From Caldisericota bacterium (GTDB taxonomy: Bacteria; Caldisericota; JANLFM01), in the NCBI GenBank assembly GCA_024655865.1, contig JANLFM010000004.1, positions 19,040-83,039 of the forward strand: DNA of 64,000 bases, given 5' to 3'. Positions 39,536 to 60,795 of the stretch are shown here, piece by piece; within the stretch, counting starts at the first letter, position 1; every line of letters starts with the position of its first letter. The translations under genes were made by a program, and so were the position numbers. Below the pieces are notes generated by a model. It was given only the letters and a program-made list of their open reading frames with translations, ran no database searches and was not told the origin of the DNA.

Positions 39536-40205
39536 CATGGTGCTTCCCATCTATGATTTAAACAGAAGAAGGTCCTTTCCCTTTATCACTCTGACGCTGA
39601 TTGCCTCTTGCATAATAGTTTTTATCTACCAGCTCACCCTGGGGCTCTCTTCTGAGGAGGGCAACCGTTTTGTGACGCTCTACGGGGCGGTCCCCGCATT
39701 GATCCTTCAGGGACAGAACATCTCCTCCATCTTCAGCTCCATGTTCCTGCACGGTGGCTGGCTCCATCTGATCGGAAATATGTTTTTCCTCTGGGTTTTT
39801 GGCGACAACGTGGAAGATTTCCTGGGACCTGTGCGCTACACCCTTTTCTACTTGCTCTCTGGAGTTGCTGCAGCCTACAGCTACGTTCTCTTCTCAGGGA
39901 ACTACCCCTATACACCCATGATTGGAGCCTCTGGGGCGATATCCGGGGTCATGGGAGCTTACATTTATTTCTTCCCCAGAGCACCGATAATCACGCTGAT
40001 TCCCCTGGGAATTTTCTCAAGGGTGATCCCCCTTCCTGCCTGGATCTACCTCTTAATCTGGTTCGGCTCGCAGTTCCTGATCGCTCCTTCGGAAGGCGTT
40101 GCGGTTCAGGCCCACATTGGAGGTTTCCTGGCCGGAATTGCTCTGGCGATCATCTTTAGCTTAGGTAAACGCCCCACCCCATCCGGGGGTCAGGTCTTGC
40201 AATAA
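39492..40205 (+). CDS. Rhomboid-family intramembrane serine protease (start likely ~39537); last codons read into the REP repeat
   Basis: Carries GASGAISG (GxSG) and the AHIGGFLAG catalytic His, with six TM segments. Confidence 0.75.
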   Translation: MTSTARAFSTWRRNSMVLPIYDLNRRRSFPFITLTLIASCIIVFIYQLTLGLSSEEGNRFVTLYGAVPALILQGQNISSIFSSMFLHGGWLHLIGNMFFLWVFGDNVEDFLGPVRYTLFYLLSGVAAAYSYVLFSGNYPYTPMIGASGAISGVMGAYIYFFPRAPIITLIPLGIFSRVIPLPAWIYLLIWFGSQFLIAPSEGVAVQAHIGGFLAGIALAIIFSLGKRPTPSGGQVLQ

Positions 40206-40462
40206 CACATTTGCTTTTTTCGGCATTCTATGCGCTCTGGGGAGATGCCTTCGGGTGCTTTTAATACTGCCGTAGCGGCCCTCTTTCACCTCTTTTTCAA
40301 TGGAAATTTCCATAAACCTCTATGGCCTGCCCTTTGAGCCTGAAATAGAAGGCAGAAGCTCATGAGCCATTAAACCAATATTTGAAACATAGCCCCTTTT
40401 TAGCCTGAAAACGAAGCAGAAGCCCGTCGAAATTAAAATGTTGGATTGCAAGACCTGACCCC
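40186..40462 (+). mobile_element. 277-bp MITE/REPIN-like element bounded by inverted copies of the 26-bp REP GGGGTCAGGTCTTGCAATCCAACAAT (copy A)
   Basis: Terminal inverted repeats read directly. The interior is ~90% identical to copy B. Confidence 0.7.
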
Positions 40463-40523: not shown

Positions 40524-41882
40524 GTGGAACAAATGAGAGGGAAGTGGAAAGTTTTACTGGTTTTGGTTTCTCTCCTCGCTATTACAGCTATGATCGCCAG
40601 TTGTGCTGCTCCTACGCCAAGCCCTACACCCACCGCGACTTCTCCTACGCCCACACCGACTTCTCCACCGCCAGAAGTTAATGCGCTTACGGTCTATCAC
40701 TGGTGGACCTCGGGCGGAGAGAAAGCGGCAATTGATGCCCTTGTTAAAGTTTTCGCCACAAAGTATCCCGATGTAGCAATTATGCAGACTCCTGTAACAG
40801 GGGGCGCAGGCTTTACCATGATGGGCATCATTAAGACCCTGGTCTTAGCAGGGGATGCTCCAGATGCCTTTCAGATGCATGCTGGATACGAGGGCAAGCC
40901 CTATTTCGACGCCGGCCTTCTTGACCCCATAGATGATCTCTGGAAAGAAGAGGGCCTGGAAGCCGTAATACCTGAAGTGGTCAGGCACATGTGCCAGTTC
41001 GATGGGCATTATTACTCTGTGCCCGTGAACATTCACAGGGTAAACGTCGTCTGGTACAACAAATCCCTTCTGGATAAAAACGGGATTGACCCCACCACTT
41101 TAACCACCTGGGACGCCTTCTTTGCTGCCTGCGACAAGCTAAAAGCTGCAGGCGTCCAGTATCCCATTCAAATGGGTGAAGCCTGGACGGCCGCTCACGC
41201 TTTTGAACAAATTGTGGCCAGCATGGGCATAGACTTCTATCAGGATTGGATCAACGGCAAGATAACCGCTGCGGATGATCCCAAGCTGACGCAGGCTCTG
41301 GAAATCTTCAAAAAGTACCTGAGCTACGTTAACCCCGATCATGCTGCTTTAACCTGGGATGACGCCACAAAGAGGATCATCACCGGGGAAGGCGCCTTCA
41401 ACATTATGGGTGACTGGGCCAACGGAGAATTTTACGTTGCCAAGATGACGTACGGCGAAGATTACGGAACATTCGCGGTGCCCGGAACTGAGGGGATGTA
41501 CGGCCTCTGCATCGATGTTTTCCAGCATCCCAAGGGGGTAAAGCACCCCACCAACTCCCTGCGATGGCTTAAGGTGGTAGCCTCCAAGGAGGGGCAGGAC
41601 GCCTTTAACCCTATCAAGGGTTCCATCGCTGCCCGGACAGATGCCGATATCTCTAAGTACGGTCCTTACCAGCAATCCGCTATTGCGGACTTCAAAGTAG
41701 CCAAATACATGTTCCCCAGCGTGGTCCACGGGAGCGGAGCCCCAGAGTCCTTCAAGGTTAAGCTGTCCGACATCATCTCTGGGTTTACCACCGACTTAGA
41801 CGTGAATAAGGCAGCACAGGCCCTGACCAGCTATACCAAGGAGATCTCCGGCGAATACACCATTCAGTGGTCAATTAAATAG
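40524..41882 (+). CDS. ABC transporter solute-binding lipoprotein (sugar, family 1) with Pro/Thr-rich linker
   Basis: A lipobox (LAITAMIASC) is followed by a PTPSPTPTATSPTPT linker and an SBP fold. Confidence 0.85.
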   Translation: MEQMRGKWKVLLVLVSLLAITAMIASCAAPTPSPTPTATSPTPTPTSPPPEVNALTVYHWWTSGGEKAAIDALVKVFATKYPDVAIMQTPVTGGAGFTMMGIIKTLVLAGDAPDAFQMHAGYEGKPYFDAGLLDPIDDLWKEEGLEAVIPEVVRHMCQFDGHYYSVPVNIHRVNVVWYNKSLLDKNGIDPTTLTTWDAFFAACDKLKAAGVQYPIQMGEAWTAAHAFEQIVASMGIDFYQDWINGKITAADDPKLTQALEIFKKYLSYVNPDHAALTWDDATKRIITGEGAFNIMGDWANGEFYVAKMTYGEDYGTFAVPGTEGMYGLCIDVFQHPKGVKHPTNSLRWLKVVASKEGQDAFNPIKGSIAARTDADISKYGPYQQSAIADFKVAKYMFPSVVHGSGAPESFKVKLSDIISGFTTDLDVNKAAQALTSYTKEISGEYTIQWSIK

Positions 41883-41934
41883 GTGAAGGTTTCCAAAGGA
41901 GGGGGGAGTACTCCCCCCTCCTTTTTTTCTAAAG

Positions 41935-42825
41935 ATGACGGTTTCCTGGAAGGCTTTCAAAGATAGAATATTAACGATAACCCTTTTCCTGCCCGCCCTA
42001 GTCCTTGTAGGGTATTTTGTCTACTTCAGTATAGGCTGGAATATAGTTGTTTCTCTTTCAGACTGGAAGGGCCTTGTCCCCAGTTATCGCATTGTAGGTT
42101 TTTCTCAATACCTCAAGCTTATAAGTGACCCAGTATTTCTCATCTCGCTGAAGAATAACCTGATTTTAATGGCCCTTTTTGTCCCCGGAAGCCTGGCTCT
42201 GGGACTGTTCCTGGCCATTCTTCTCGATCAAAAGGTAAGGTTTGAGGCGAGCTTCAGGGCCATTTACTTGCTTCCTTTCACCCTCTCCTTCGTGATTACC
42301 GGTTATCTCTGGCGCTGGATGTACAACCCGACCATAGGGGTGATCAATACAATTCTGGATAAAACCGGGCTGGGTTTTTTAAAGAGCGGGTGGATCACCG
42401 ACCCCAACATCGCACTTTATTGCGTAGTTCTCGCTCTGATCTGGCAATTCGCGGGATATACGATGCTCATTTTTCTCGCAGGGATCCGGTCCATTCCTGA
42501 ATCGCACATTATGGCTGCCCAAGTTGACGGGGCCTCGGGATTTTACCTATATAGAAGAATCATCATCCCTCAAATTAAATTTTCCTTCTTCACGGCTTTC
42601 GTAATCCTTATGGTTTTTGCCCTGAAAGCCTTTGACTTCATTTATATTCTTACTTCCGGTGGTCCCGGCTATGCCACGGAAATTCTCCCCCTGACTATGT
42701 ACAAGGAAAGCTTCGCTATGACGCACTTTGCCTACGGATCGGCCATCGCCTCCCTCTTGTTCTTTCTGGTGATGATGATCGTGGTCCCTTACCTTTTGCG
42801 CACCTATTGGAGGCAAGAGAAATGA
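41935..42825 (+). CDS. Sugar ABC transporter permease (MalF/UgpA-like)
   Basis: Six TM segments with the EAA-loop motif (DGASGFYLYRRIIIP). Confidence 0.85.
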   Translation: MTVSWKAFKDRILTITLFLPALVLVGYFVYFSIGWNIVVSLSDWKGLVPSYRIVGFSQYLKLISDPVFLISLKNNLILMALFVPGSLALGLFLAILLDQKVRFEASFRAIYLLPFTLSFVITGYLWRWMYNPTIGVINTILDKTGLGFLKSGWITDPNIALYCVVLALIWQFAGYTMLIFLAGIRSIPESHIMAAQVDGASGFYLYRRIIIPQIKFSFFTAFVILMVFALKAFDFIYILTSGGPGYATEILPLTMYKESFAMTHFAYGSAIASLLFFLVMMIVVPYLLRTYWRQEK

Positions 42826-43646
42826 CTCGCCCCCGGGTCAGTCGCTTTTTCCTGTACCTGATTCTGATTTTCTTCGTCATCCTCTTCCTTCTCCCCCTGT
42901 GGAGCGCCCTGGTGACCGCCCTGAAAACCGAGCAGGACCTGATCTATACCACTCCTATAGAACCGCCTAAAGATCCCACCCTGGAGCCCCTGAAAACCAC
43001 ACTGTCCATAATGGGTCGTCCCCTTTTAAACAGCTTGACCTTCACTTTGGGAGCAACTCTCCTTTCTTGCCTTTTTGGTTCTATTGCAGGATACGTTTTG
43101 ACCAAAATCAGGTTCCCGGGTTCCGGTATTATTTTTGCTTTGATCATTCTGGGCATTTTTATCCCCTATCAGGCAGTCCTCGTGCCTTTAGTGTTGACTA
43201 TGGTCAGGCTCGGCCTCTACAACACCATATGGGGACTGATTTTGACCCATACAGCCTACGGGATACCAATTTGCACCCTGCTTTTCCGGTCCTTTTATGA
43301 GGATATTCCCGACAGCCTGGTTCGAGCCGCACAAATAGACGGGGCCGGCACCTGGACTATATACAGGCGAGTGATACTTCCCCTATCCTGGCTTCCTTTC
43401 GCAGTGGCTGCGGTCTTCCAATTCACCTCTATCTGGAACGACCTGTTAATTGGCCTGGTCCTTTCCCGGGGGATTGAGGCTATGCCTGCATCTGTGGCTT
43501 TAGCGAATCTCAAGGGTGGCTTTGTCGCTCTCTGGAATTTACAGATGGCAGGCACGCTCTGGTATGCTCTACCCGCTTTGATTATTTATTTCGTTTTAGG
43601 AAAATATTTGATAAAGGGATATATGGCTGGAGCGATCAAGGGCTAA
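42807..43646 (+). CDS. Sugar ABC transporter permease (MalG/UgpE-like)
   Basis: Has the EAA loop (AAQIDGAGTWTIYRRVILP). Confidence 0.85.
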   Translation: MEAREMTRPRVSRFFLYLILIFFVILFLLPLWSALVTALKTEQDLIYTTPIEPPKDPTLEPLKTTLSIMGRPLLNSLTFTLGATLLSCLFGSIAGYVLTKIRFPGSGIIFALIILGIFIPYQAVLVPLVLTMVRLGLYNTIWGLILTHTAYGIPICTLLFRSFYEDIPDSLVRAAQIDGAGTWTIYRRVILPLSWLPFAVAAVFQFTSIWNDLLIGLVLSRGIEAMPASVALANLKGGFVALWNLQMAGTLWYALPALIIYFVLGKYLIKGYMAGAIKG

Positions 43647-43647
43647 T

Positions 43648-43673
43648 GGGGTCAGGTCTTGCAATCCAACAAT
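43648..43673 (+). repeat. Solo REP copy between the permease and ATPase genes
   Basis: Exact 26-mer read directly. Confidence 0.7.
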
Positions 43674-43704
43674 TTCAGAGGACTGGAGCGATTAAGAGTT
43701 AAAA

Positions 43705-44820
43705 ATGGCGAGCGTAATCATTAAGAACCTGAAAAAAAGATACGGCAAATCCGAGGCCGTGGACAATTTAAACCTGGAAATCAGGGATGGAGAGTTTTTT
43801 GTCCTTCTTGGTCCGTCTGGTTGTGGCAAGACGACAACCCTGCTTTCTATCGCCGGGTTGATTACTCCTGACGAAGGGGAAATCTGGTTAGGAGAAGAGC
43901 TGGTAACCTCAAAAGAAAAGAGGAGTTTCCTTCGTCCTCAGGAACGTGATGTGGCCATGGTTTTCCAGGATTACGCTATCTACCCCCACCTGACCGTTTT
44001 TAGAAATATTTCTTTTCCTCTGGAAGTGAGAGGGATGAGCAAAGAGATAATAGAGAAAAAGGTCAGGGAAGTGGCCGAAAGCCTGGGCATTGCAAGCCTG
44101 CTTTCCCGAAAACCGGCACAGCTCTCAGGTGGTCAAAGGCAAAGGGTGGCCCTGGCCCGGGCCATCGTGAGGGAGCCCAAAGTTTTCCTCATGGATGAGC
44201 CGCTGTCTAATCTTGACGCCAAGCTTAGAGTGTCTGCCAGGGCTGAATTAAAAAAATTACACGAGAGAATTAAAACAACGATCATCTACGTCACCCATGA
44301 TCAGGTAGAAGCTATGTCCATTGGGGACCGTATTGCTATTTTAAACAATGGGCGCCTTGAGCAGGTGGGAACCCCTCGGGAAGTCTATGACCGCCCCGCC
44401 AATATTTTTGTGGCCTCATTCATCGGCAGCCCGCCCATGAATTTCTTTGAGGGCCTCATCCGGGGGCAAGACGAGAAGATTGTGCTGGATTTAGGTTTTA
44501 CCTCCATAGAGCTTCCCGAAAGAATCAAGAAGGCCATAAGAGAGAACGGGCTTTCTCAGGTAACGGTTGGCATCCGACCGGAACACGTAGAAATCGTAAA
44601 AGAAAGGGGAGCCAAAGGCTTAATTGAAGCCAAAATTGACGTCATAGAGCTCGTGGGAAAAGAGTTTATAGTGCACCTGGACCTTGACAGATGGTCCATA
44701 GTTTCCGTAACCAGTGCCAACCTGGATCTGGTTGCGGGGGAAAAGGTGGGGCTTTTCCTGGACATAAACAGGATGCACTTTTTTGAGAGTCAAACCGGAA
44801 AGGCCCTTTCCACTTCTTAA
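43705..44820 (+). CDS. Sugar ABC transporter ATP-binding protein (MalK/UgpC-like with C-terminal TOBE domain)
   Basis: Has Walker A GPSGCGKTT, the ABC signature LSGGQRQR and Walker B FLMDEPLSNLD. Confidence 0.9.
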   Translation: MASVIIKNLKKRYGKSEAVDNLNLEIRDGEFFVLLGPSGCGKTTTLLSIAGLITPDEGEIWLGEELVTSKEKRSFLRPQERDVAMVFQDYAIYPHLTVFRNISFPLEVRGMSKEIIEKKVREVAESLGIASLLSRKPAQLSGGQRQRVALARAIVREPKVFLMDEPLSNLDAKLRVSARAELKKLHERIKTTIIYVTHDQVEAMSIGDRIAILNNGRLEQVGTPREVYDRPANIFVASFIGSPPMNFFEGLIRGQDEKIVLDLGFTSIELPERIKKAIRENGLSQVTVGIRPEHVEIVKERGAKGLIEAKIDVIELVGKEFIVHLDLDRWSIVSVTSANLDLVAGEKVGLFLDINRMHFFESQTGKALSTS

Positions 44821-50626: not shown

Positions 50627-51674
50627 CCTTCATCCCTCTTTCTTCCCCCTCATGGGGTCAGGTCTTGCAATCCAACAATTCTTAAATGTATTAATATTAA
50701 ATGCTAAAAGAGTTTTAAATTTGACGACGGGAAAAATAACAAAGTTCCTGGTGGCTCTTTGGGATAAGGTGAAAAAGTTTAAATTACGAACTCAGGAGTA
50801 TTTCGTCATTATTGGGGGCGTGTTAATTCTGGCCCTCATCCTCTACTTTGTTTTCCACTCTCGCTCTTCTCCCCTTCGGGGCTTTGATTTAAGCCAGGTA
50901 ATTGGCGCCGGGCATTTGAAAAATTCTTCAAGCCCAACCTCGAGCTCCCCACCCCCTACCTTTTCCTCTTCCAGGCCGGAGGCTCCATTAATAGCTTTGG
51001 TGCTCGACGACAACGGCTACAACCTGGAGCAATCGCGAACCTTCATCGCCCTCCCCGTTCCCCTCACGCTTTCCGTCCTGCCCTCCCTCAAGTATTCCAG
51101 GGAAGTGGCACAGGAAGCTCTTGCTAAGGGTAAAGAAGTTATTTTGCATTGTCCCATGGAGTCTCATAAGGGAAACAACTGGTTGGGTCCGGGAGCGATT
51201 TTCACCACAATGAGCGATGAGGAAATTAAAAAACAGATCGAGGCCGACCTTTACGATGTTCCCGGGGCCACGGGAGTTAATAATCACATGGGCACAAAGG
51301 CTACCGAGGACTCGAGGGTGATGAGGGCGCTCCTCTCATATCTCAAAGAGAGAGGGCTTTTTTTCCTGGACTCCAGGGTGACTTCTGGCTCAAAAGCGCG
51401 GGAAATCGGCCTGGAACTGGGAGTTCCCGTTCTGGAAAATGACCTTTCATTAGATCACGATCCAGACCCCCAGGCGATCAGGGAAAAGATGAAAAGGCTG
51501 GGAGAGATCGCCCGGAAAAGAGGGGTAGCCATCGGCATAGCCCACGTCTATACCCGGGACATCCTCCCCCTTCTTTCGGAAGGAATAGGTTACTGGGAAG
51601 AGGAGGGCTTTCAGATGGTGCGCCTTTCCGAAATTATCCCCTATTGGGCGCCTTCACCGGGAGGGAAGCCTTGA
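50619..51674 (+). CDS. Divergent polysaccharide deacetylase family protein (YibQ-like) with N-terminal TM anchor; start probably ~50730
   Basis: Core region GATGVNNHMGTKATED...LFFLDSRVT. Confidence 0.65.
   Translation: MLILHPSFFPLMGSGLAIQQFLNVLILNAKRVLNLTTGKITKFLVALWDKVKKFKLRTQEYFVIIGGVLILALILYFVFHSRSSPLRGFDLSQVIGAGHLKNSSSPTSSSPPPTFSSSRPEAPLIALVLDDNGYNLEQSRTFIALPVPLTLSVLPSLKYSREVAQEALAKGKEVILHCPMESHKGNNWLGPGAIFTTMSDEEIKKQIEADLYDVPGATGVNNHMGTKATEDSRVMRALLSYLKERGLFFLDSRVTSGSKAREIGLELGVPVLENDLSLDHDPDPQAIREKMKRLGEIARKRGVAIGIAHVYTRDILPLLSEGIGYWEEEGFQMVRLSEIIPYWAPSPGGKP
50644..50669 (+). repeat. Solo REP copy
   Basis: Exact 26-mer read directly. It lies inside the annotated 5' end of ORF 50619, so that ORF's true start is probably downstream. 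Confidence 0.7.
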
Positions 51675-56277: not shown

Positions 56278-56367
56278 AATTTTAAATATTATACCATAAA
56301 TCCCACCCCCTCTGAGCTCTGAGGGTCAGGTCTTGCAATCCAACAATGAAGAGGATAAACTTTAACC

Positions 56368-57210
56368 ATGGCCAGACCACTGAGAATCGAATATCCCGGA
56401 GCTGTATACCACGTCACCTCTCGGGGTAACGCCCGCCAGGATATATTCCTGGACTCAAAGGATCGAGAACTTTTCCTCAAAACGCTCGCCGAGGTTGTCG
56501 ATGAGTTTAACTGGCTCTGTCACGCCTATTGCCTCATGGATAACCACTACCATCTCCTTCTGGAAACTCCGGACGCCAATCTCTCCCGGGGCATGCGCCA
56601 GTTGAACGGGGTTTACACTCAAATATTCAACCGCAGGCATAATACTTTTGGCCATCTCTTTCAGGGCCGCTACAAGGCAATCCTGGTAGAAAAGGAACGC
56701 TACCTCCTGGCGCTCTGTCGGTACATTGTCCTCAACCCCGTGCGCTCCGGAAAAGCGAAAGAGGTTCAAGATTGGGCCTGGAGCAGCTATCAAGCCACGG
56801 CCGGCCTCGCTCCGCCCCCTCCATTCCTTGTTACCGATTGGATTTTGGGGCAATTTGCACCCGAGAAGAATAAGGCCCAGGCACTCTATCGCCAGTTTGT
56901 AAATTCCTGGCCGGGCACCTCTCCCTGGGATGATCTCCGCGGACAGATTTATTTGGGGAGCGAGAGGTTCATTAAGGATCTTGCCAATGGGAATGCCCTT
57001 GCCAAAGGAAATGCCCTTACTGAGGTTCCCCGCTTCCAGAGGAACGTGAACCGGCTCGGGCTCGAGGAAATTTTTGCAGGACGACCCCAGGAGGAGGCGA
57101 TTGCCCTGGCTTATCGGGAACATGGCTACACGATGAAGGAGATCGCCGCATACTTGGGAGTTCATTACGCTACTGTCAGCAGGCGCTTACGGCGCTCCCG
57201 CCCCCTGTAG
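56368..57210 (+). CDS. tnpA: RAYT / IS200-like Y1 HuH transposase with C-terminal HTH
   Basis: Carries the HuH motif NHYHLLLE, the catalytic Tyr motif RYIVLNP, an N-terminal YHVTSRGN and the C-terminal HTH EIAAYLGVHYATVSRRL. Confidence 0.8.
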   Translation: MARPLRIEYPGAVYHVTSRGNARQDIFLDSKDRELFLKTLAEVVDEFNWLCHAYCLMDNHYHLLLETPDANLSRGMRQLNGVYTQIFNRRHNTFGHLFQGRYKAILVEKERYLLALCRYIVLNPVRSGKAKEVQDWAWSSYQATAGLAPPPPFLVTDWILGQFAPEKNKAQALYRQFVNSWPGTSPWDDLRGQIYLGSERFIKDLANGNALAKGNALTEVPRFQRNVNRLGLEEIFAGRPQEEAIALAYREHGYTMKEIAAYLGVHYATVSRRLRRSRPL

Positions 57211-57239
57211 GATATTGGATTTTCGATACAGTTCTTATC

Positions 57240-57540
57240 CTGACTGCCTTTAAAGAGGAGGGACCGAAGGGAACACGACTTTGTAAGCGGTATGGGCGCC
57301 TCTGTCAGGAGCGACTTTGTAAACGAAATGGCTCGACTTTGTCGGTGGCGTGACTCGCTTTTGTAAGCAGCACGGGCACCCTTTTTCGGTGTAATGACCC
57401 CCCTTTGTCGGTGGCGTGACTCGCTTTTGTAAGTGGCACGGGCGCCTCTGTCAGGGAAAACGCTCGGCCTTCTCGTCTCTGTCAGTGGCATGACCCCCTT
57501 ATCAGCGGCCTGACCGGCGAAGAGAGGCTTATGGAGAGCC
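57240..57540. repeat. Complex tandem repeats (units ~45-65 bp; CTTTGTCGGTGGCGTGACTCGCTTTTGTAAG x2, TTTGTAAGnGGCACGGGCGCCTCTGTCAG x3)
   Basis: Read directly. Overlapping minus-strand ORFs translate as repeated peptides (SESRHRQ) and are likely spurious. Confidence 0.6.
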
Positions 57541-57639
57541 AATCCTAGCCTTCTCTTCCTATCCCACAGTTTCCTCAGGCGGCTGATTTTGGGCCGGTTC
57601 TGGTTATATCCACCTGGCCTGTTCGGCTCCTTGCAGAAA

Positions 57640-57790
57640 GGGGCCCTTGGCAAAAGACCCTGAGGTGCGAGGCTGAAATTTGATCCGCAGAGGATCCCCG
57701 CTTCCGCAGAAGCTCCTTGCATCCGCGAAGAGCCCTTGCATCCGCAGAAGCTCCCTGCACTCGCAGAGGATCCCCCGCGGTGCACCATCT
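57640..57790. repeat. Short tandem/inverted repeats (GCATCCGCAGAAGCTCC units flanked by CCGCAGAGGATCCCC palindromic arms)
   Basis: Read directly. Confidence 0.5.
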
Positions 57791-57929
57791 AAAGGGAAAT
57801 CCAAAAATGTATGATTGCAAGACCTGACCCTACTGGCTGGCCCTATTGGAATTCTGGAATTGTTGGATTGCAAGACCTGACCCCGTTACATGGCGTTGAC
57901 AGCCAGCCAATTATTTGCTAAAAAGGCCC

Positions 57930-58150
57930 CAAAGCGAAGAAGGGAGAGGAGTAAGCCTCGTCGCTTGCCTCAGAGAGGGGAAGTAAGGTGCGAGTTCCCT
58001 GGCAGGCAGAAGCTGAAGTCGCTCTCTGAGCTGGATGCTGAAATTAAAAGTAGGCTTTCCCGCTGGCTGCGTTAAAACCAAGAGAGCCCATTATGGGAAT
58101 TAAGGTGGTACCGCGGACCTCCGTCCTTGACGGAGGTTTTTCTTTTTAAA
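57930..58150 (+). promoter_or_regulatory. T-box riboswitch leader (Val specifier likely) with intrinsic terminator, preceded by a TTGACA-17-TAAAAA promoter at 57895-57923
   Basis: The T-box sequence AAGGTGGTACCGCGG at 58102-58116 overlaps the terminator hairpin ACCTCCGTCcttgACGGAGGT plus a T-run, which ends 18 nt before the valS ATG. The stem I arms CTCAGAGAGG and CTCTCTGAG pair. Confidence 0.75.
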
Positions 58151-58167: not shown

Positions 58168-60795
58168 ATGGAGATATCCACGGCTTACGAGCCTAAGGCA
58201 GTAGAAAAAAGGATATACCGGTTCTGGCTGGACGGAAATTATTTCCGTGCCGAAATCGATTACCACAAAAAACCGGCTGTAATTTCTATGCCCCCTCCCA
58301 ACGTTTACGGCTCCCTGCATATGGGACATGGCTTCAATAACACCCTTCAGGACCTGATCATCCGCTTTTGGAGAATGAGCGGGCTGAACGCTCTCTGGGT
58401 TCCCGGACTGGATCACGCTGGTTTAGCTTTCCAGAACGCAGTAGAAAAGGAGCTTCGCAAGGAGGGCCTCTCCCGTTTCGATTTGGGGAGAGAGGAGTTT
58501 TTAAAGAGGTGTTTTAAGTGGAAGGAGGAACAGGCTGCCTACGTGGTGGAACAGCTTCAGACAATGGGGGCTTCAGCGGATTGGTCCCGTTTGCGCTTCA
58601 CGATGGACGAGGCTTACCAGAAAGCTGTGCGCCGCCAATTCGTGCAACTTTTCCAGGATGGATTGATCTACAGGGGAACCCGGATCATAAACTGGTGCCC
58701 TACCTGTCTCACGGCACTTTCGGATATCGAGGTGGAGTACGAGGAGGAGCAAGCCTTCCTCTATTATGTGCGCTATCCCCTGGAGGGAGGGGAGGGCTTC
58801 ATCACGGTGGCCACAACCAGGCCGGAAACGATGCTCGGAGACACAGGAGTAGCAGTACACCCGGAGGATTTAAGATACCGTTCCTTAATCGGTAAAACAG
58901 CCATCCTCCCCATTATGAATCGCAAAATTCCCATTGTGGCCGATGAGGCTGTTGACCCCACCTTTGGTACAGGAGCGGTAAAGATCACCCCGGCTCATGA
59001 TCCGGTGGACTACGAGGTTGGTCAGAGGCACAATCTTCCCCCCATCTCCGTGATCGGCGAAAAGGGGAAGATGACCTCTGATGCCGGAAAGTACGCGGGA
59101 AAAGATCGCCTGGAAGCGCGAAAGGAAATCGTAGAGGAACTTAAAAGAGAAGGGCTTCTTCTGAAAGTGGAGCCCTACACTCACGCCTTGGGCAAGTGCT
59201 ACCGCTGCCACCAGCCCATAGAGCCCTTGATTTCCACACAGTGGTTCGTGAAAATGAAACCCCTGGCCATACCGGCGATGGAGGTCGTGGAAAGAGGAGA
59301 AATTAAGTTTTACCCTGAGCGATGGAAAAAGGTATATATGGACTGGATGGAGAATATAAAGGACTGGTGCATCTCGCGCCAGATCTGGTGGGGGCACCGG
59401 ATTCCTGTCTGGTACTGTCAGTCCTGCGGGGAAGTTTTCGCCAGCGAGGATGATCCGGAAAGGTGCCCCCACTGTGGTTCTCCTGATTTAAAGCAGGATC
59501 CTGACGCCCTGGACACCTGGTTTTCCTCTAATTTATGGCCCTTCGCCATCTTAGGCTGGCCTGAGGACACCCCCGACCTCCGCTATTTTTTCCCCACCAC
59601 GGTGCTCTCTACGGGATACGACATCATCTTCTTCTGGGTGGCACGCATGATTATGGCTTCCCTCTATTTCACGAAGAAGATCCCCTTCAGCAAGGTGTAC
59701 ATTCACGGGCTAATCAGGGATGGAAAAGGAAGAAAGATGTCCCGCTCCTTGGGCAACGTGATAGACCCCTTAGAGAAAATGGAGCAATACGGCACCGACG
59801 CTTTTCGATTCGCCATGGCGGCCTCAGCCACTCTTGGAGGCCAGGACATTCCTATGGGTGAAGAGCGCTTCGAGCGGGGGCGAAATTTCACGAACAAGCT
59901 CTGGAACGCCTCCCGCTTCCTTTTAATCAACCTCGAGGGGTACGACCCTCAAGCTCGACCCGCCGACTCCCTCCCTCACAGATATATTCGCTCTCGCCTG
60001 AACAAAGTAATTGAGGAAGTTACCAGGGACCTTGAGGAGTTCAATTTTGCTGATTGTACGCACACTCTGGAGGAATTCTTCTGGGGAGAGTTCTGCGACT
60101 GGTATATCGAGATGTGCAAAACCGACCTTGCCCGTGGTGGTGAGGCCAAGAAAGGGGCACAGGTGGTTCTCCACGACACCCTTGAGACCATCCTCAGGCT
60201 CCTACATCCCATTTGCCCCTTCATCACCGAGGAGCTCTGGCAGAAGCTACCGGGTAAAAAGGGGCCTGCCTTGATCGTTGCTCCCTGGCCCAAGCCCGAG
60301 AAAAGCCTTTACGATGAGGATGCGGAAGAGAGGATGGAGTGTCTTAAGGCCTTCGTGCGCACTGTACGCAATTTGCGCGCCGAAGGGGGCCTTCCTCCAT
60401 CGAACTTCATCAAGGCTCTGGTGATTACCGATTCCCAGACTCAAAAAACTATCCAGGAGTCCCTGGAATACATTCTTCCCCTGGCCCGCCTGAGCGAGGT
60501 GGAGTTCCTGGAGGAGAAAAGAAGGCCTAAAGGGTCCCTTGGCGGGATTGCTCAGGGCATGGAGATCTTTCTGCCCCTTACCATTCAGGAAAAAGAAAGC
60601 CTGCTTGCCCGGATGAGGAAGGATTCGGAGAAATTGAAAGCGGACTACGAGCGCGTCCTTCTTCGGATATCTAACCCCGAGTTTCACAAAAAGGCTCCTC
60701 CCGAGGTTTTGGAAAAACAAAAAAGAAGCCTTGAGGATTTGAAGTTTCGCCTGGAGCGAGTGCAAAAAATCATCGAAGAGCTGGAGGAAGAATGA
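58168..60795 (+). CDS. valS: Valyl-tRNA synthetase
   Basis: Class I motifs HMGH and KMSRS are present, with a C-terminal coiled coil, 875 aa. Confidence 0.95.
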   Translation: MEISTAYEPKAVEKRIYRFWLDGNYFRAEIDYHKKPAVISMPPPNVYGSLHMGHGFNNTLQDLIIRFWRMSGLNALWVPGLDHAGLAFQNAVEKELRKEGLSRFDLGREEFLKRCFKWKEEQAAYVVEQLQTMGASADWSRLRFTMDEAYQKAVRRQFVQLFQDGLIYRGTRIINWCPTCLTALSDIEVEYEEEQAFLYYVRYPLEGGEGFITVATTRPETMLGDTGVAVHPEDLRYRSLIGKTAILPIMNRKIPIVADEAVDPTFGTGAVKITPAHDPVDYEVGQRHNLPPISVIGEKGKMTSDAGKYAGKDRLEARKEIVEELKREGLLLKVEPYTHALGKCYRCHQPIEPLISTQWFVKMKPLAIPAMEVVERGEIKFYPERWKKVYMDWMENIKDWCISRQIWWGHRIPVWYCQSCGEVFASEDDPERCPHCGSPDLKQDPDALDTWFSSNLWPFAILGWPEDTPDLRYFFPTTVLSTGYDIIFFWVARMIMASLYFTKKIPFSKVYIHGLIRDGKGRKMSRSLGNVIDPLEKMEQYGTDAFRFAMAASATLGGQDIPMGEERFERGRNFTNKLWNASRFLLINLEGYDPQARPADSLPHRYIRSRLNKVIEEVTRDLEEFNFADCTHTLEEFFWGEFCDWYIEMCKTDLARGGEAKKGAQVVLHDTLETILRLLHPICPFITEELWQKLPGKKGPALIVAPWPKPEKSLYDEDAEERMECLKAFVRTVRNLRAEGGLPPSNFIKALVITDSQTQKTIQESLEYILPLARLSEVEFLEEKRRPKGSLGGIAQGMEIFLPLTIQEKESLLARMRKDSEKLKADYERVLLRISNPEFHKKAPPEVLEKQKRSLEDLKFRLERVQKIIEELEEE

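Follow-up and report, generated by a model that had tools for sequence, protein, structure and literature searches.

A probable TIRtron in a Caldisericota contig: a RAYT-like single-tyrosine HuH transposase gene between terminal inverted repeats that also occur in gene-less units

The sequence analysed here (the window) is a 64-kb stretch of the 93-kb contig JANLFM010000004.1 from a Caldisericota bacterium (assembly GCA_024655865.1, positions 19,040 to 83,039 of the forward strand). It contains one gene for a RAYT-like protein (RAYT stands for REP-associated tyrosine transposase, and REP for repetitive extragenic palindrome) and nine copies of a repeat, whose 26-mer form, GGGGTCAGGTCTTGCAATCCAACAAT, brackets the gene as a forward copy at 56322-56347 and an inverted copy at 57859-57884. 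An initial annotation, made from the letters alone, had taken this arrangement for an intact RAYT with its cognate REP. Our analysis indicates instead that the repeat is a terminal inverted repeat (TIR) and that the locus is probably a TIRtron, whose transposase gene is called TIRYT below. The features of the gene-carrying element are as follows.

56322-56347, plus strand: left TIR, AGGGTCAGGTCTTGCAATCCAACAAT, with one mismatch to the 26-mer (AGGG for GGGG)
56356-56361, plus strand: -10-like hexamer TAAACT, 17 nt past TTGCAA and 6 nt before the ATG
56368-57210, plus strand: TIRYT gene, 280 aa, with the Y1 HuH core at aa 13-120
56545-56553, plus strand: HYH motif (within HYHLLLE), H60-Y61-H62
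56722-56724, plus strand: catalytic Tyr119 (within RYIVLNP)
aa 140-235 of the TIRYT protein: middle region, poorly modelled
57100-57195, plus strand: C-terminal helix-turn-helix (HTH), aa 245-276, with Pfam matches
57213-57250, minus strand: candidate decayed original right TIR (ATATTGGATT..CCTGAC), a weak resemblance by eye
57251-57807, no strand: non-coding tail of the element, holding tandem arrays of 22-nt units (57338-57437) and of 19-nt units (57683-57774)
57808-57831, minus strand: inner right TIR, partial, in tandem with the outer right TIR and 92% complementary to the left one
57859-57884, minus strand: outer right TIR, an exact copy of the 26-mer and the right boundary of the 1563-bp insertion

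The 280-aa open reading frame (ORF) had been described as a Y1 HuH protein with HYHLLLE and RYIVLNP motifs and a C-terminal HTH, and both its sequence and profile searches bear this out. Pfam Y1_Tnp matched with 53 bits (cut-off 23, E = 4e-14), and HTH_23 (28.1 bits versus a cut-off of 24.6), HTH_38 and Sigma70_r4_2 were all above the Pfam cut-offs at aa 245-276. The protein also passed the curated NCBIfam RAYT model REP_Tyr_transpos (NF047646; 86.1 bits, cut-off 80), so that the profile check proposed with the initial annotation came out in its favour, and it did not reach the IS200 model NF033573 (15.9 bits, cut-off 55). The sole sequence match in the PDB was Escherichia coli TnpA-REP (4ER8), with which the HuH and Tyr residues align; the same structure was the top Foldseek match of the AF2 model (E = 1.2e-6), followed by the ISDra2 and IS608 transposases. 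The mean confidence of the model (pLDDT, predicted local distance difference test) was 65, with a good Y1 core and HTH and a confident three-helix fold at the C-terminus. Among 21 homologues (49-81% identity), residues H60, Y61, H62 and Y119 were invariant and the HTH helix GVHYATVSR was nearly so. The ratio of nonsynonymous to synonymous substitution rates (dN/dS) was 0.13 against a 95%-identical syntenic orthologue, indicating that the gene is intact and under purifying selection. Clustered at 50% identity, relatives of the protein gave 3276 clusters with E <= 1e-30, which are of full-length type, and 46,912 with E <= 1e-3. Public records label several close homologues (e.g. P0025, P0096 and P0062) 'addiction module toxin RelE' or 'ParE', which appears to be a propagated misannotation.

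The TIR arms of the element are complementary at 25 of 25 positions (56322-56347 versus 57859-57883). The gene had been said to sit exactly between its 26-mers; the flanking inverted copies are there, but the gene starts 20 nt past the left TIR and ends 648 nt ahead of the outer right TIR. The outer 13 nt of the left TIR constitute the core shared by the family, and TTGCAA at 56333-56338 is a -35-like box. When up to three mismatches were allowed, the 17-nt core GGTCAGGTCTTGCAATC was found nine times in the window (40188+, 40444-, 43650+, 44844+, 45100-, 50656+, 56324+, 57813- and 57866-), compared with 0.11 matches expected from shuffled sequence, in which nine was never reached. The seven further copies reported initially were therefore real, with two corrections: the copy placed at 50644 is located at 50654, and those at 40186 and 44842 diverge from the 26-mer in the inner 8 nt. 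All nine copies are confined to 18 kb (40.2-57.9 kb), and the remaining 46 kb of the window gave chance-level matches only (up to five mismatches in 18 nt). As the initial annotation had observed, each copy is intergenic or overlaps a gene end, and ORFs do end at the repeat: the rhomboid stop codon is inside a TIR (40203-40205) and the permease stop codon is 1 nt ahead of the TIR at 43648. The outer end GGGGTCAG (57884-57877 on the minus strand, and seven other copies) fits the motif GGGGWSAS, and the left TIR at 56322 starts with AGGGTCAG where the other copies start with GGGGTCAG.

Three kinds of unit bounded by or consisting of these TIRs occur in the window, namely the 1563-bp gene-carrying element (56322-57884), two 277-bp gene-less copies, which resemble miniature inverted-repeat transposable elements (MITEs), and two solo TIRs. 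The gene-less units are listed here.

40186-40462, plus strand: MITE A, gene-less, 277 bp, whose left TIR supplies the rhomboid stop codon
44842-45118, plus strand: MITE B, gene-less, 277 bp, between an ATP-binding cassette (ABC) ATPase gene and proS
43648-43673, plus strand: solo TIR, a perfect 26-mer, between two ABC transporter genes
50654-50679, plus strand: solo TIR, a perfect 26-mer, in a divergent intergenic region

The two MITEs are about 83-89% identical; their homology begins at the left TIR's GGGG and runs on for 3 nt beyond the right TIR (a shared GGA), with unrelated flanks. No target-site duplication was visible at any TIR copy in the window. The single 26-mer, folded alone and in context, formed no hairpin (minimum free energy (MFE) 0 kcal/mol, no better than shuffles) and carries no GTAG/GTGG tag, contrary to the imperfect REP hairpin with a 5' tetranucleotide that had been expected; the end regions of the element likewise showed no significant hairpin. 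Hairpins form only from pairs of inverted TIR copies, which are spaced by about 10 nt to 1.5 kb. Folded as a single strand, MITE B forms a stem in which its TIRs pair (-42.3 kcal/mol, z = -4.75), and the 47-50-nt inverted doublets of other genomes have z of about -6.4 (range including MITE B, -4.75 to -6.55). Since the repeat has no self-complementarity and no GTAG/GTGG tag, and since it bounds the 277-bp and 1563-bp units, it is a terminal inverted repeat bounding discrete units, not a REP. What stands of the initial reading is the RAYT-branch Y1 protein and the logic of a gene with its dispersed repeat; the assignment of the repeat to the REP class does not. A full-text literature search gave no match to the TIR sequence.

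At one of the solo TIRs, the junction with the flank (50652-50679) makes an ATG (ctcATGGGGTCAGG). The Joint Genome Institute (JGI) gene call starts a polysaccharide deacetylase at this ATG, giving a protein of 340 aa versus 282-317 aa in relatives, and the longer call is probably an annotation artefact of the solo TIR insertion.

The relatives of the host show both filled and empty sites. In JGI data, the window corresponds to part of Ga0417229_000165 (3300038743). The proS product of the window is 90% identical to that of the 'Caldiserica bacterium' metagenome-assembled genome (MAG) GCA_024655965.1 (L141). This genome and a second population from the same sample (L142) share synteny, over about 21 kb, with about 23 kb of the window (35-58 kb), and these syntenic stretches contain zero TIR copies. 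In L141, the homology with the window ends at 56298 and resumes at 57895, with 55 unrelated nucleotides in place of the element; both 277-bp units and the solo TIR at 50654 are missing, and the sequence at the position of the solo TIR at 43648 is unrelated to that of the window. As the flanks of the empty sites are about 80% identical, the junctions are placed only to within a few tens of nucleotides (about 11-24 nt on either side of the gene-carrying element). The 1563-bp unit, both 277-bp units and the solo TIR at 50654, all of which L141 and L142 lack, are polymorphic for presence or absence and have defined ends. Because they are missing from a syntenic Caldisericota relative, the element, the MITEs and the solo copies are insertions. 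This absence, together with the patchy cross-phylum distribution of the family, does not support the earlier description of the system as domesticated, and the empty sites of the relative show no terminator-like hairpin, leaving the suggestion of insertion at terminators unsupported.

Other relatives carry TIR units in different combinations. In a 95% orthologue (L125), the gene-carrying element occupies the same site as in the window, and there are likewise two right TIRs, 28 nt apart. The solo TIR at 50654 behaves as an indel of about 27 nt, absent from L141, present in L137 and replaced by other sequence in L125; a different short palindrome, CAACACCCACAGGTGTGGGTTAA, occupies its place there (L125:4290-4330 versus window 50640-50680), which hints that a second small repeat family uses the same intergenic spot. 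L137, whose proS product is 97% identical, lacks the ABC operon for sugar transport that lies between the MITEs in the window; a 345-bp element bounded by TIRs is found there instead, its left TIR duplicated and its interior unrelated. The operon consists of four genes (window 40524-44820, flanked by the MITEs) and is present without MITEs in L141 (L141:5647-9933), and its position in L137 (L137:6580-7000) holds a single unrelated TIR-bounded element. Recombination between the MITEs was considered for the absence of the operon in L137 and is unsupported, as the remaining element has an unrelated interior. In a different context, an 82% homologue (L130) has ten TIR copies within 4 kb around the gene, and an 82% paralogue-like gene (P0002) is present in the same metagenomes. 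TIR content differs sharply among relatives that are 90-97% identical. Among close relatives, the small TIR units are dynamic and the gene copy is positionally stable, at one chromosomal site, a lifestyle resembling that of RAYT/REPIN systems.

The repeat had also been regarded as specific to this lineage, which is refuted by its distribution. Among the matches listed, more than 120 stretches of genomes that represent GTDB species carry the exact 20-base pattern GGGTCAGGTCTTGCAATNNNACA, including Nitrospirota, Rokubacteria, Actinomycetota, Acidobacteriota, Beta/Gammaproteobacteria, Elusimicrobia, Planctomycetota, Bipolaricaulota, Atribacterota, candidate-phyla-radiation (CPR) bacteria and others, and three of these matches were from cultured isolates. 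Cultured carriers of the element include Andreprevotia lacus DSM 23236 (L074), Collimonas rhizosphaerae H4R21 and Thioalkalicoccus limnaeus Um2. The proteins encoded at these loci are 48-64% identical to the window protein. To avoid circularity, we also chose 80 metagenome loci by protein similarity alone (49-62% identity). In this TIR-blind sample, 53 of 72 homologues had the 17-nt core with up to four mismatches, the modal distance from GGG to the ATG was 45 nt, and in 30 of 32 cases the right TIR began 4-54 nt past the ORF. Of 71 distinct homologous elements, 53 had GGGGTCAGGTCTT or AGGGTCAGGTCTT as their outer core. From the TIR positions relative to the ORF in the homologues, the canonical element is about 950 bp long, and the window copy is unusual by its 650-nt tail. 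Variants of the HTH helix are paired with variants of the TIR (VSR with GCAAT, VSK with GAAAT/GAATT, VGR with GGTCTA/C and HPST with GACCTT), a pairing confounded by phylogeny; this tracking suggests that the TIR is read by the HTH, by which the TIRYT gene is possibly autoregulated.

TIR ends common to many phyla point to horizontal spread of the TIR elements. Carriage by phages or plasmids was considered as the route of this spread and set aside. IMG/VR contained no exact TIR and gave one weak phage protein match, and the sole full-length homologue among 72,556 plasmids (L223; 47% identity, annotated 'transposase') lies on the Legionella adelaidensis plasmid NZ_LR134433.1 (352182-353045), with the TIR variant GGGTCAGGCCTTGCC and a left TIR 117 nt from the start codon instead of the usual 45.

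The left TIR, about 45 nt ahead of the start codon (44-47 nt in 70 distinct left ends), is accompanied by promoter-like signals. TAnnnT is located 4-8 nt before the start codon in 58 of the 70 left ends, versus about 5 expected by chance, in the extended form TGnTAnnnT in 26, and the TTGCAA of the TIR is 16-17 nt upstream of this -10-like hexamer; a Shine-Dalgarno-like tetramer was found in only 7 of the 70. On these family-wide statistics, on which the claim rests rather than on the window copy, the left end seems to hold a complete promoter that would give a leaderless transposase mRNA.

Directly before 50 of 552 distinct TIRs (about 9%), across many phyla, we found a tandem 'stutter' duplication, a unit composed of 2-14 nt of outside flank plus a TIR prefix (for examples, see L074:1355-1400, L116, L060, L012 and L137:6580-6650). 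In an exact-match form of the test, 21 of 147 TIRs were positive compared with 2 of 2480 random positions. The outer boundary of the unit varies, whereas in about 38 of the 50 the last bases of the prefix are GGGTC or GGGTCA, and this fixed inner boundary suggests a nick site at GGGGTC(A). The window itself contains a possible stutter at 56309-56330 (CTCTGAG CTCTGAG GGTCAGG), and the double right TIRs in the window and L125 may be related to such events. A larger structure was seen in L167 (L167:100-2380), in which four tandem partial left ends (the TIR plus 33, 66, about 430 and about 650 nt of the gene, the partial copies reaching about 700 nt) precede one complete element; nested self-insertion was ruled out for its five left ends, as nothing follows the right TIR.

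The part of the window element between the stop codon and the right TIRs is not a family feature. The repeat numbers of its arrays differ in the 95% orthologue, and the tail is conserved in orthologous loci only: when the tail (57211-57805) and the MITE interiors were sought in about 220 related loci, they were found only in orthologous loci or in the window itself, and they are for this reason not regarded as belonging to the family. The candidate at 57213-57250 lies directly past the stop codon, the usual place of the right TIR in canonical elements, and it is possibly the decayed original right TIR. Several short-read assemblies break within the tail, and a 207-aa minus-strand ORF in it (57165-57788) had no family match and looks spurious. 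An Rfam scan of 39.5-58.5 kb found the valS T-box leader and one chance-level match only, with nothing meaningful in the tail. The leader (RF00230, 113 bits; 57928-58131, plus strand), with its terminator at 58115-58139, precedes valS (58168-60795), and a promoter-like TTGACA at 57895-57900, the putative valS promoter, begins about 10 nt after the element's right TIR. In the relative that lacks the element, the same valS T-box leader is retained.

Taken together, we consider it about 80% probable that the locus is a TIRtron, i.e. a 1563-bp element with 26-nt TIRs encoding a TIRYT, a RAYT-like single-tyrosine HuH nuclease/ligase with a C-terminal HTH. For such an element the following course can be proposed. 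The -35 box of the left TIR would drive transcription that begins at or beside the ATG, so that the mRNA would be leaderless. The HTH would bind the TIR; its recognition helix GVHYATVSR and the outer TIR are both almost invariant. The Y1 domain would nick at or opposite GGGGTC(A)|. Acting in trans, the enzyme would mobilise DNA between two inverted TIRs, whether the gene-carrying element, the 277-bp copies or the 47-bp hairpin doublets of other genomes, and possibly single TIRs as well. The substrate form would probably be single-stranded DNA in which TIR pairs fold into long, REPIN-like hairpins. As a model for the stutters, which is unproven, a sequence-specific nick within the TIR would leave an element-side 3'-OH that is extended outward by a few bases, and religation of the tyrosine-linked 5' end would produce the duplicated flank-plus-prefix unit. 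A wider proposal, that TIRYT is one pan-bacterial, still-active transposon family whose 13-nt end GGGGTCAGGTCTT is kept near-invariant by the HTH, with the stutters mapping the nick and a rolling-circle-like replicative chemistry at each end, is put forward tentatively and in our judgement is rather doubtful; if true, this chemistry would be distinct from the peel-and-paste of IS200/IS605 and has so far not been proposed for RAYT-like enzymes.

Several points weigh against the TIRtron interpretation. The element is atypical, with a 650-nt non-coding tail and an apparent decayed TIR, and the present outer TIR may be a secondary acquisition. The gene copy is at an unchanged site in the 95% orthologue L125, with no sign of a recent move, and the diverged flanks of the empty-site relative (about 80%) prevent base-exact insertion junctions. 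As the TIR-bounded interiors are unrelated between close relatives, some of the 'MITEs' may be two independently inserted solo TIRs and not units moved whole. A strict sigma-70 scan of the element found no site that passes, and the boxes of the window copy match 8 of 12 consensus positions. The AF2 model is poor across aa 110-226, the catalytic tyrosine included, and the middle domain is not interpretable. The mechanistic steps for TIRYT are all inferred; the searched literature gave descriptive accounts only, with no biochemical test or transposition of any TIRYT (PMC3733652, PMC6006769), and the term 'TIRYT' was found there in these two papers only.

Three other explanations were compared with this one. 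A classical domesticated REP/RAYT system, in which a single-copy, vertically inherited RAYT maintains lineage-specific palindromic REPs or REPINs, would account for a protein that passes the NCBIfam RAYT cut-off and has TnpA-REP as its nearest structure, for a gene that is single-copy in the window, at a conserved site in the 95% relative, under purifying selection and almost absent from plasmids and phages, and for repeats whose inverted doublets make hairpins. It is nevertheless improbable, as one repeat unit by itself makes no palindrome (MFE 0) and bears no GTAG tag, and the element is missing from a relative with a 90% identical proS product. Moreover, the repeat core is identical over many phyla, whereas REPs are RAYT-lineage-specific, and the extra C-terminal HTH is a hallmark of TnpA-Y1 subclass 2.1, a subclass without REPs (PMC6006769). 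We attach still less weight to an autonomous insertion sequence (IS) of the IS200/IS605 type, which would have subterminal hairpins, a short target sequence on the left and single-strand 'peel and paste' as its mode of movement: the ends are genuine inverted repeats and not a pair of dissimilar subterminal hairpins, no conserved tetranucleotide lies beside the left ends in the window, and the protein is double the size of TnpA-IS200, carries an HTH and scores 15.9 bits with the IS200 model (cut-off 55). The Y1 HuH fold with IS608 and ISDra2 TnpA among the Foldseek matches, the lack of a target-site duplication, the polymorphism of the whole element and the cross-phylum spread would suit such an IS, but a single copy in 64 kb and a gene at the same site in a relative would not.

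The remaining explanation takes the TIRs mainly for host regulatory or structural DNA (an operator or promoter, an mRNA-stabilising hairpin or a nucleoid-protein site) and the Y1-HTH protein for what is now a sequence-specific regulator or nuclease with no role in transposition. The catalytic HuH and Tyr residues are invariant, a 277-bp TIR-bounded unit has been duplicated as a unit, TIR content is sharply different among 90-97% identical relatives, and the stutter duplications indicate DNA breakage at the TIR, all of which leave this explanation very unlikely despite the promoter-like arrangement, conserved family-wide, that the left TIR overlaps, the apparent co-variation of HTH helix and TIR, the location of TIRs at gene ends and beside the valS T-box leader, and the immobility of the gene copy between close relatives.

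RAYT-like HuH enzymes count among the most widespread relatives of transposases, and how they move DNA is, to our knowledge, undemonstrated. The locus and its relatives supply a concrete substrate with a defined end of 13-26 nt, and they lead to the prediction of a nick at GGGGTC(A), of contact between HTH and TIR and of a self-contained promoter; the Caldisericota populations offer natural filled and empty sites. For annotation, 'REP/RAYT' calls should be separated from TIRYT/TIRtron, and the TIR is useful as a cross-phylum marker of TIRYT elements and their gene-less derivatives. Nothing in the window is categorically new; the TIRYT class is widespread.

Among known systems, the MITEs of DDE insertion sequences are similar in being short gene-less units with the TIRs of a transposase element, intergenic and polymorphic between relatives; the window units differ in that the enzyme is a HuH tyrosine nuclease and not DDE, target-site duplications are absent and solo TIRs are common. 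With IS200/IS605 TnpA (IS608, ISDra2) the element shares the HuH single-tyrosine fold and the absence of target-site duplication, but it has neither subterminal imperfect hairpins nor a conserved left tetra- or pentanucleotide target, and its protein is about twice as long and far under the cut-off of the IS200 model. The RAYT/REPIN systems (TnpA-REP 4ER8; Pseudomonas RAYT groups 2 and 3) are closer, with a Y1 HuH core in which HuH and Tyr align, a gene between inverted repeats that are dispersed in intergenic DNA and make long hairpins as inverted doublets, and an apparently single-copy gene, stable in position and very rare on plasmids. Unlike theirs, however, the repeat unit of the window is non-palindromic, lacks GTAG/GTGG, is common in sequence to many phyla and has a doublet spacing of about 10 nt to 1.5 kb, and the protein has an extra middle region and an HTH.

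The closest likeness is to the RAYT-like genes with long TIRs that Di Nocera, De Gregorio and Rocco (2013) named 'TIRYT', and their loci 'TIRtrons', many TIRs of which share GGGGWSAS and occur as singles, dimers and clusters (PMC3733652). Quentin, Siguier, Chandler and Fichant (2018) placed 20 of 26 TIRYTs in TnpA-Y1 subclass 2.1, which is characterised by a C-terminal HTH_23, HTH_28 or DnaA_C (Bac_DnaA_C) domain and has no REPs, and reported that REPs are specific to each RAYT lineage (PMC6006769). Since its TIR begins with GGGGTCAG, its protein has HTH_23 and all of the defining features are found, the window element belongs to this already described kind, TnpA-Y1 subclass 2.1, subgroup 2.1.2. 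The features in common are a RAYT-like Y1 gene between long TIRs unlike GTAG REPs, a TIR opening with GGGGWSAS, a protein longer than RAYT with a C-terminal HTH_23-type domain, TIRs also present as moderately abundant singles, dimers and clusters, and a patchy taxonomic distribution; no defining feature differs. To the earlier descriptions the present locus adds a Caldisericota-like MAG host, a 650-nt repeat-rich tail, empty sites, 277-bp gene-less derivatives, a putative TIR-embedded promoter with a leaderless start and stutter duplications, together with a near-invariant 13-20-nt TIR core across phyla where the papers had only the 8-nt GGGGWSAS (PMC3733652; PMC6006769).

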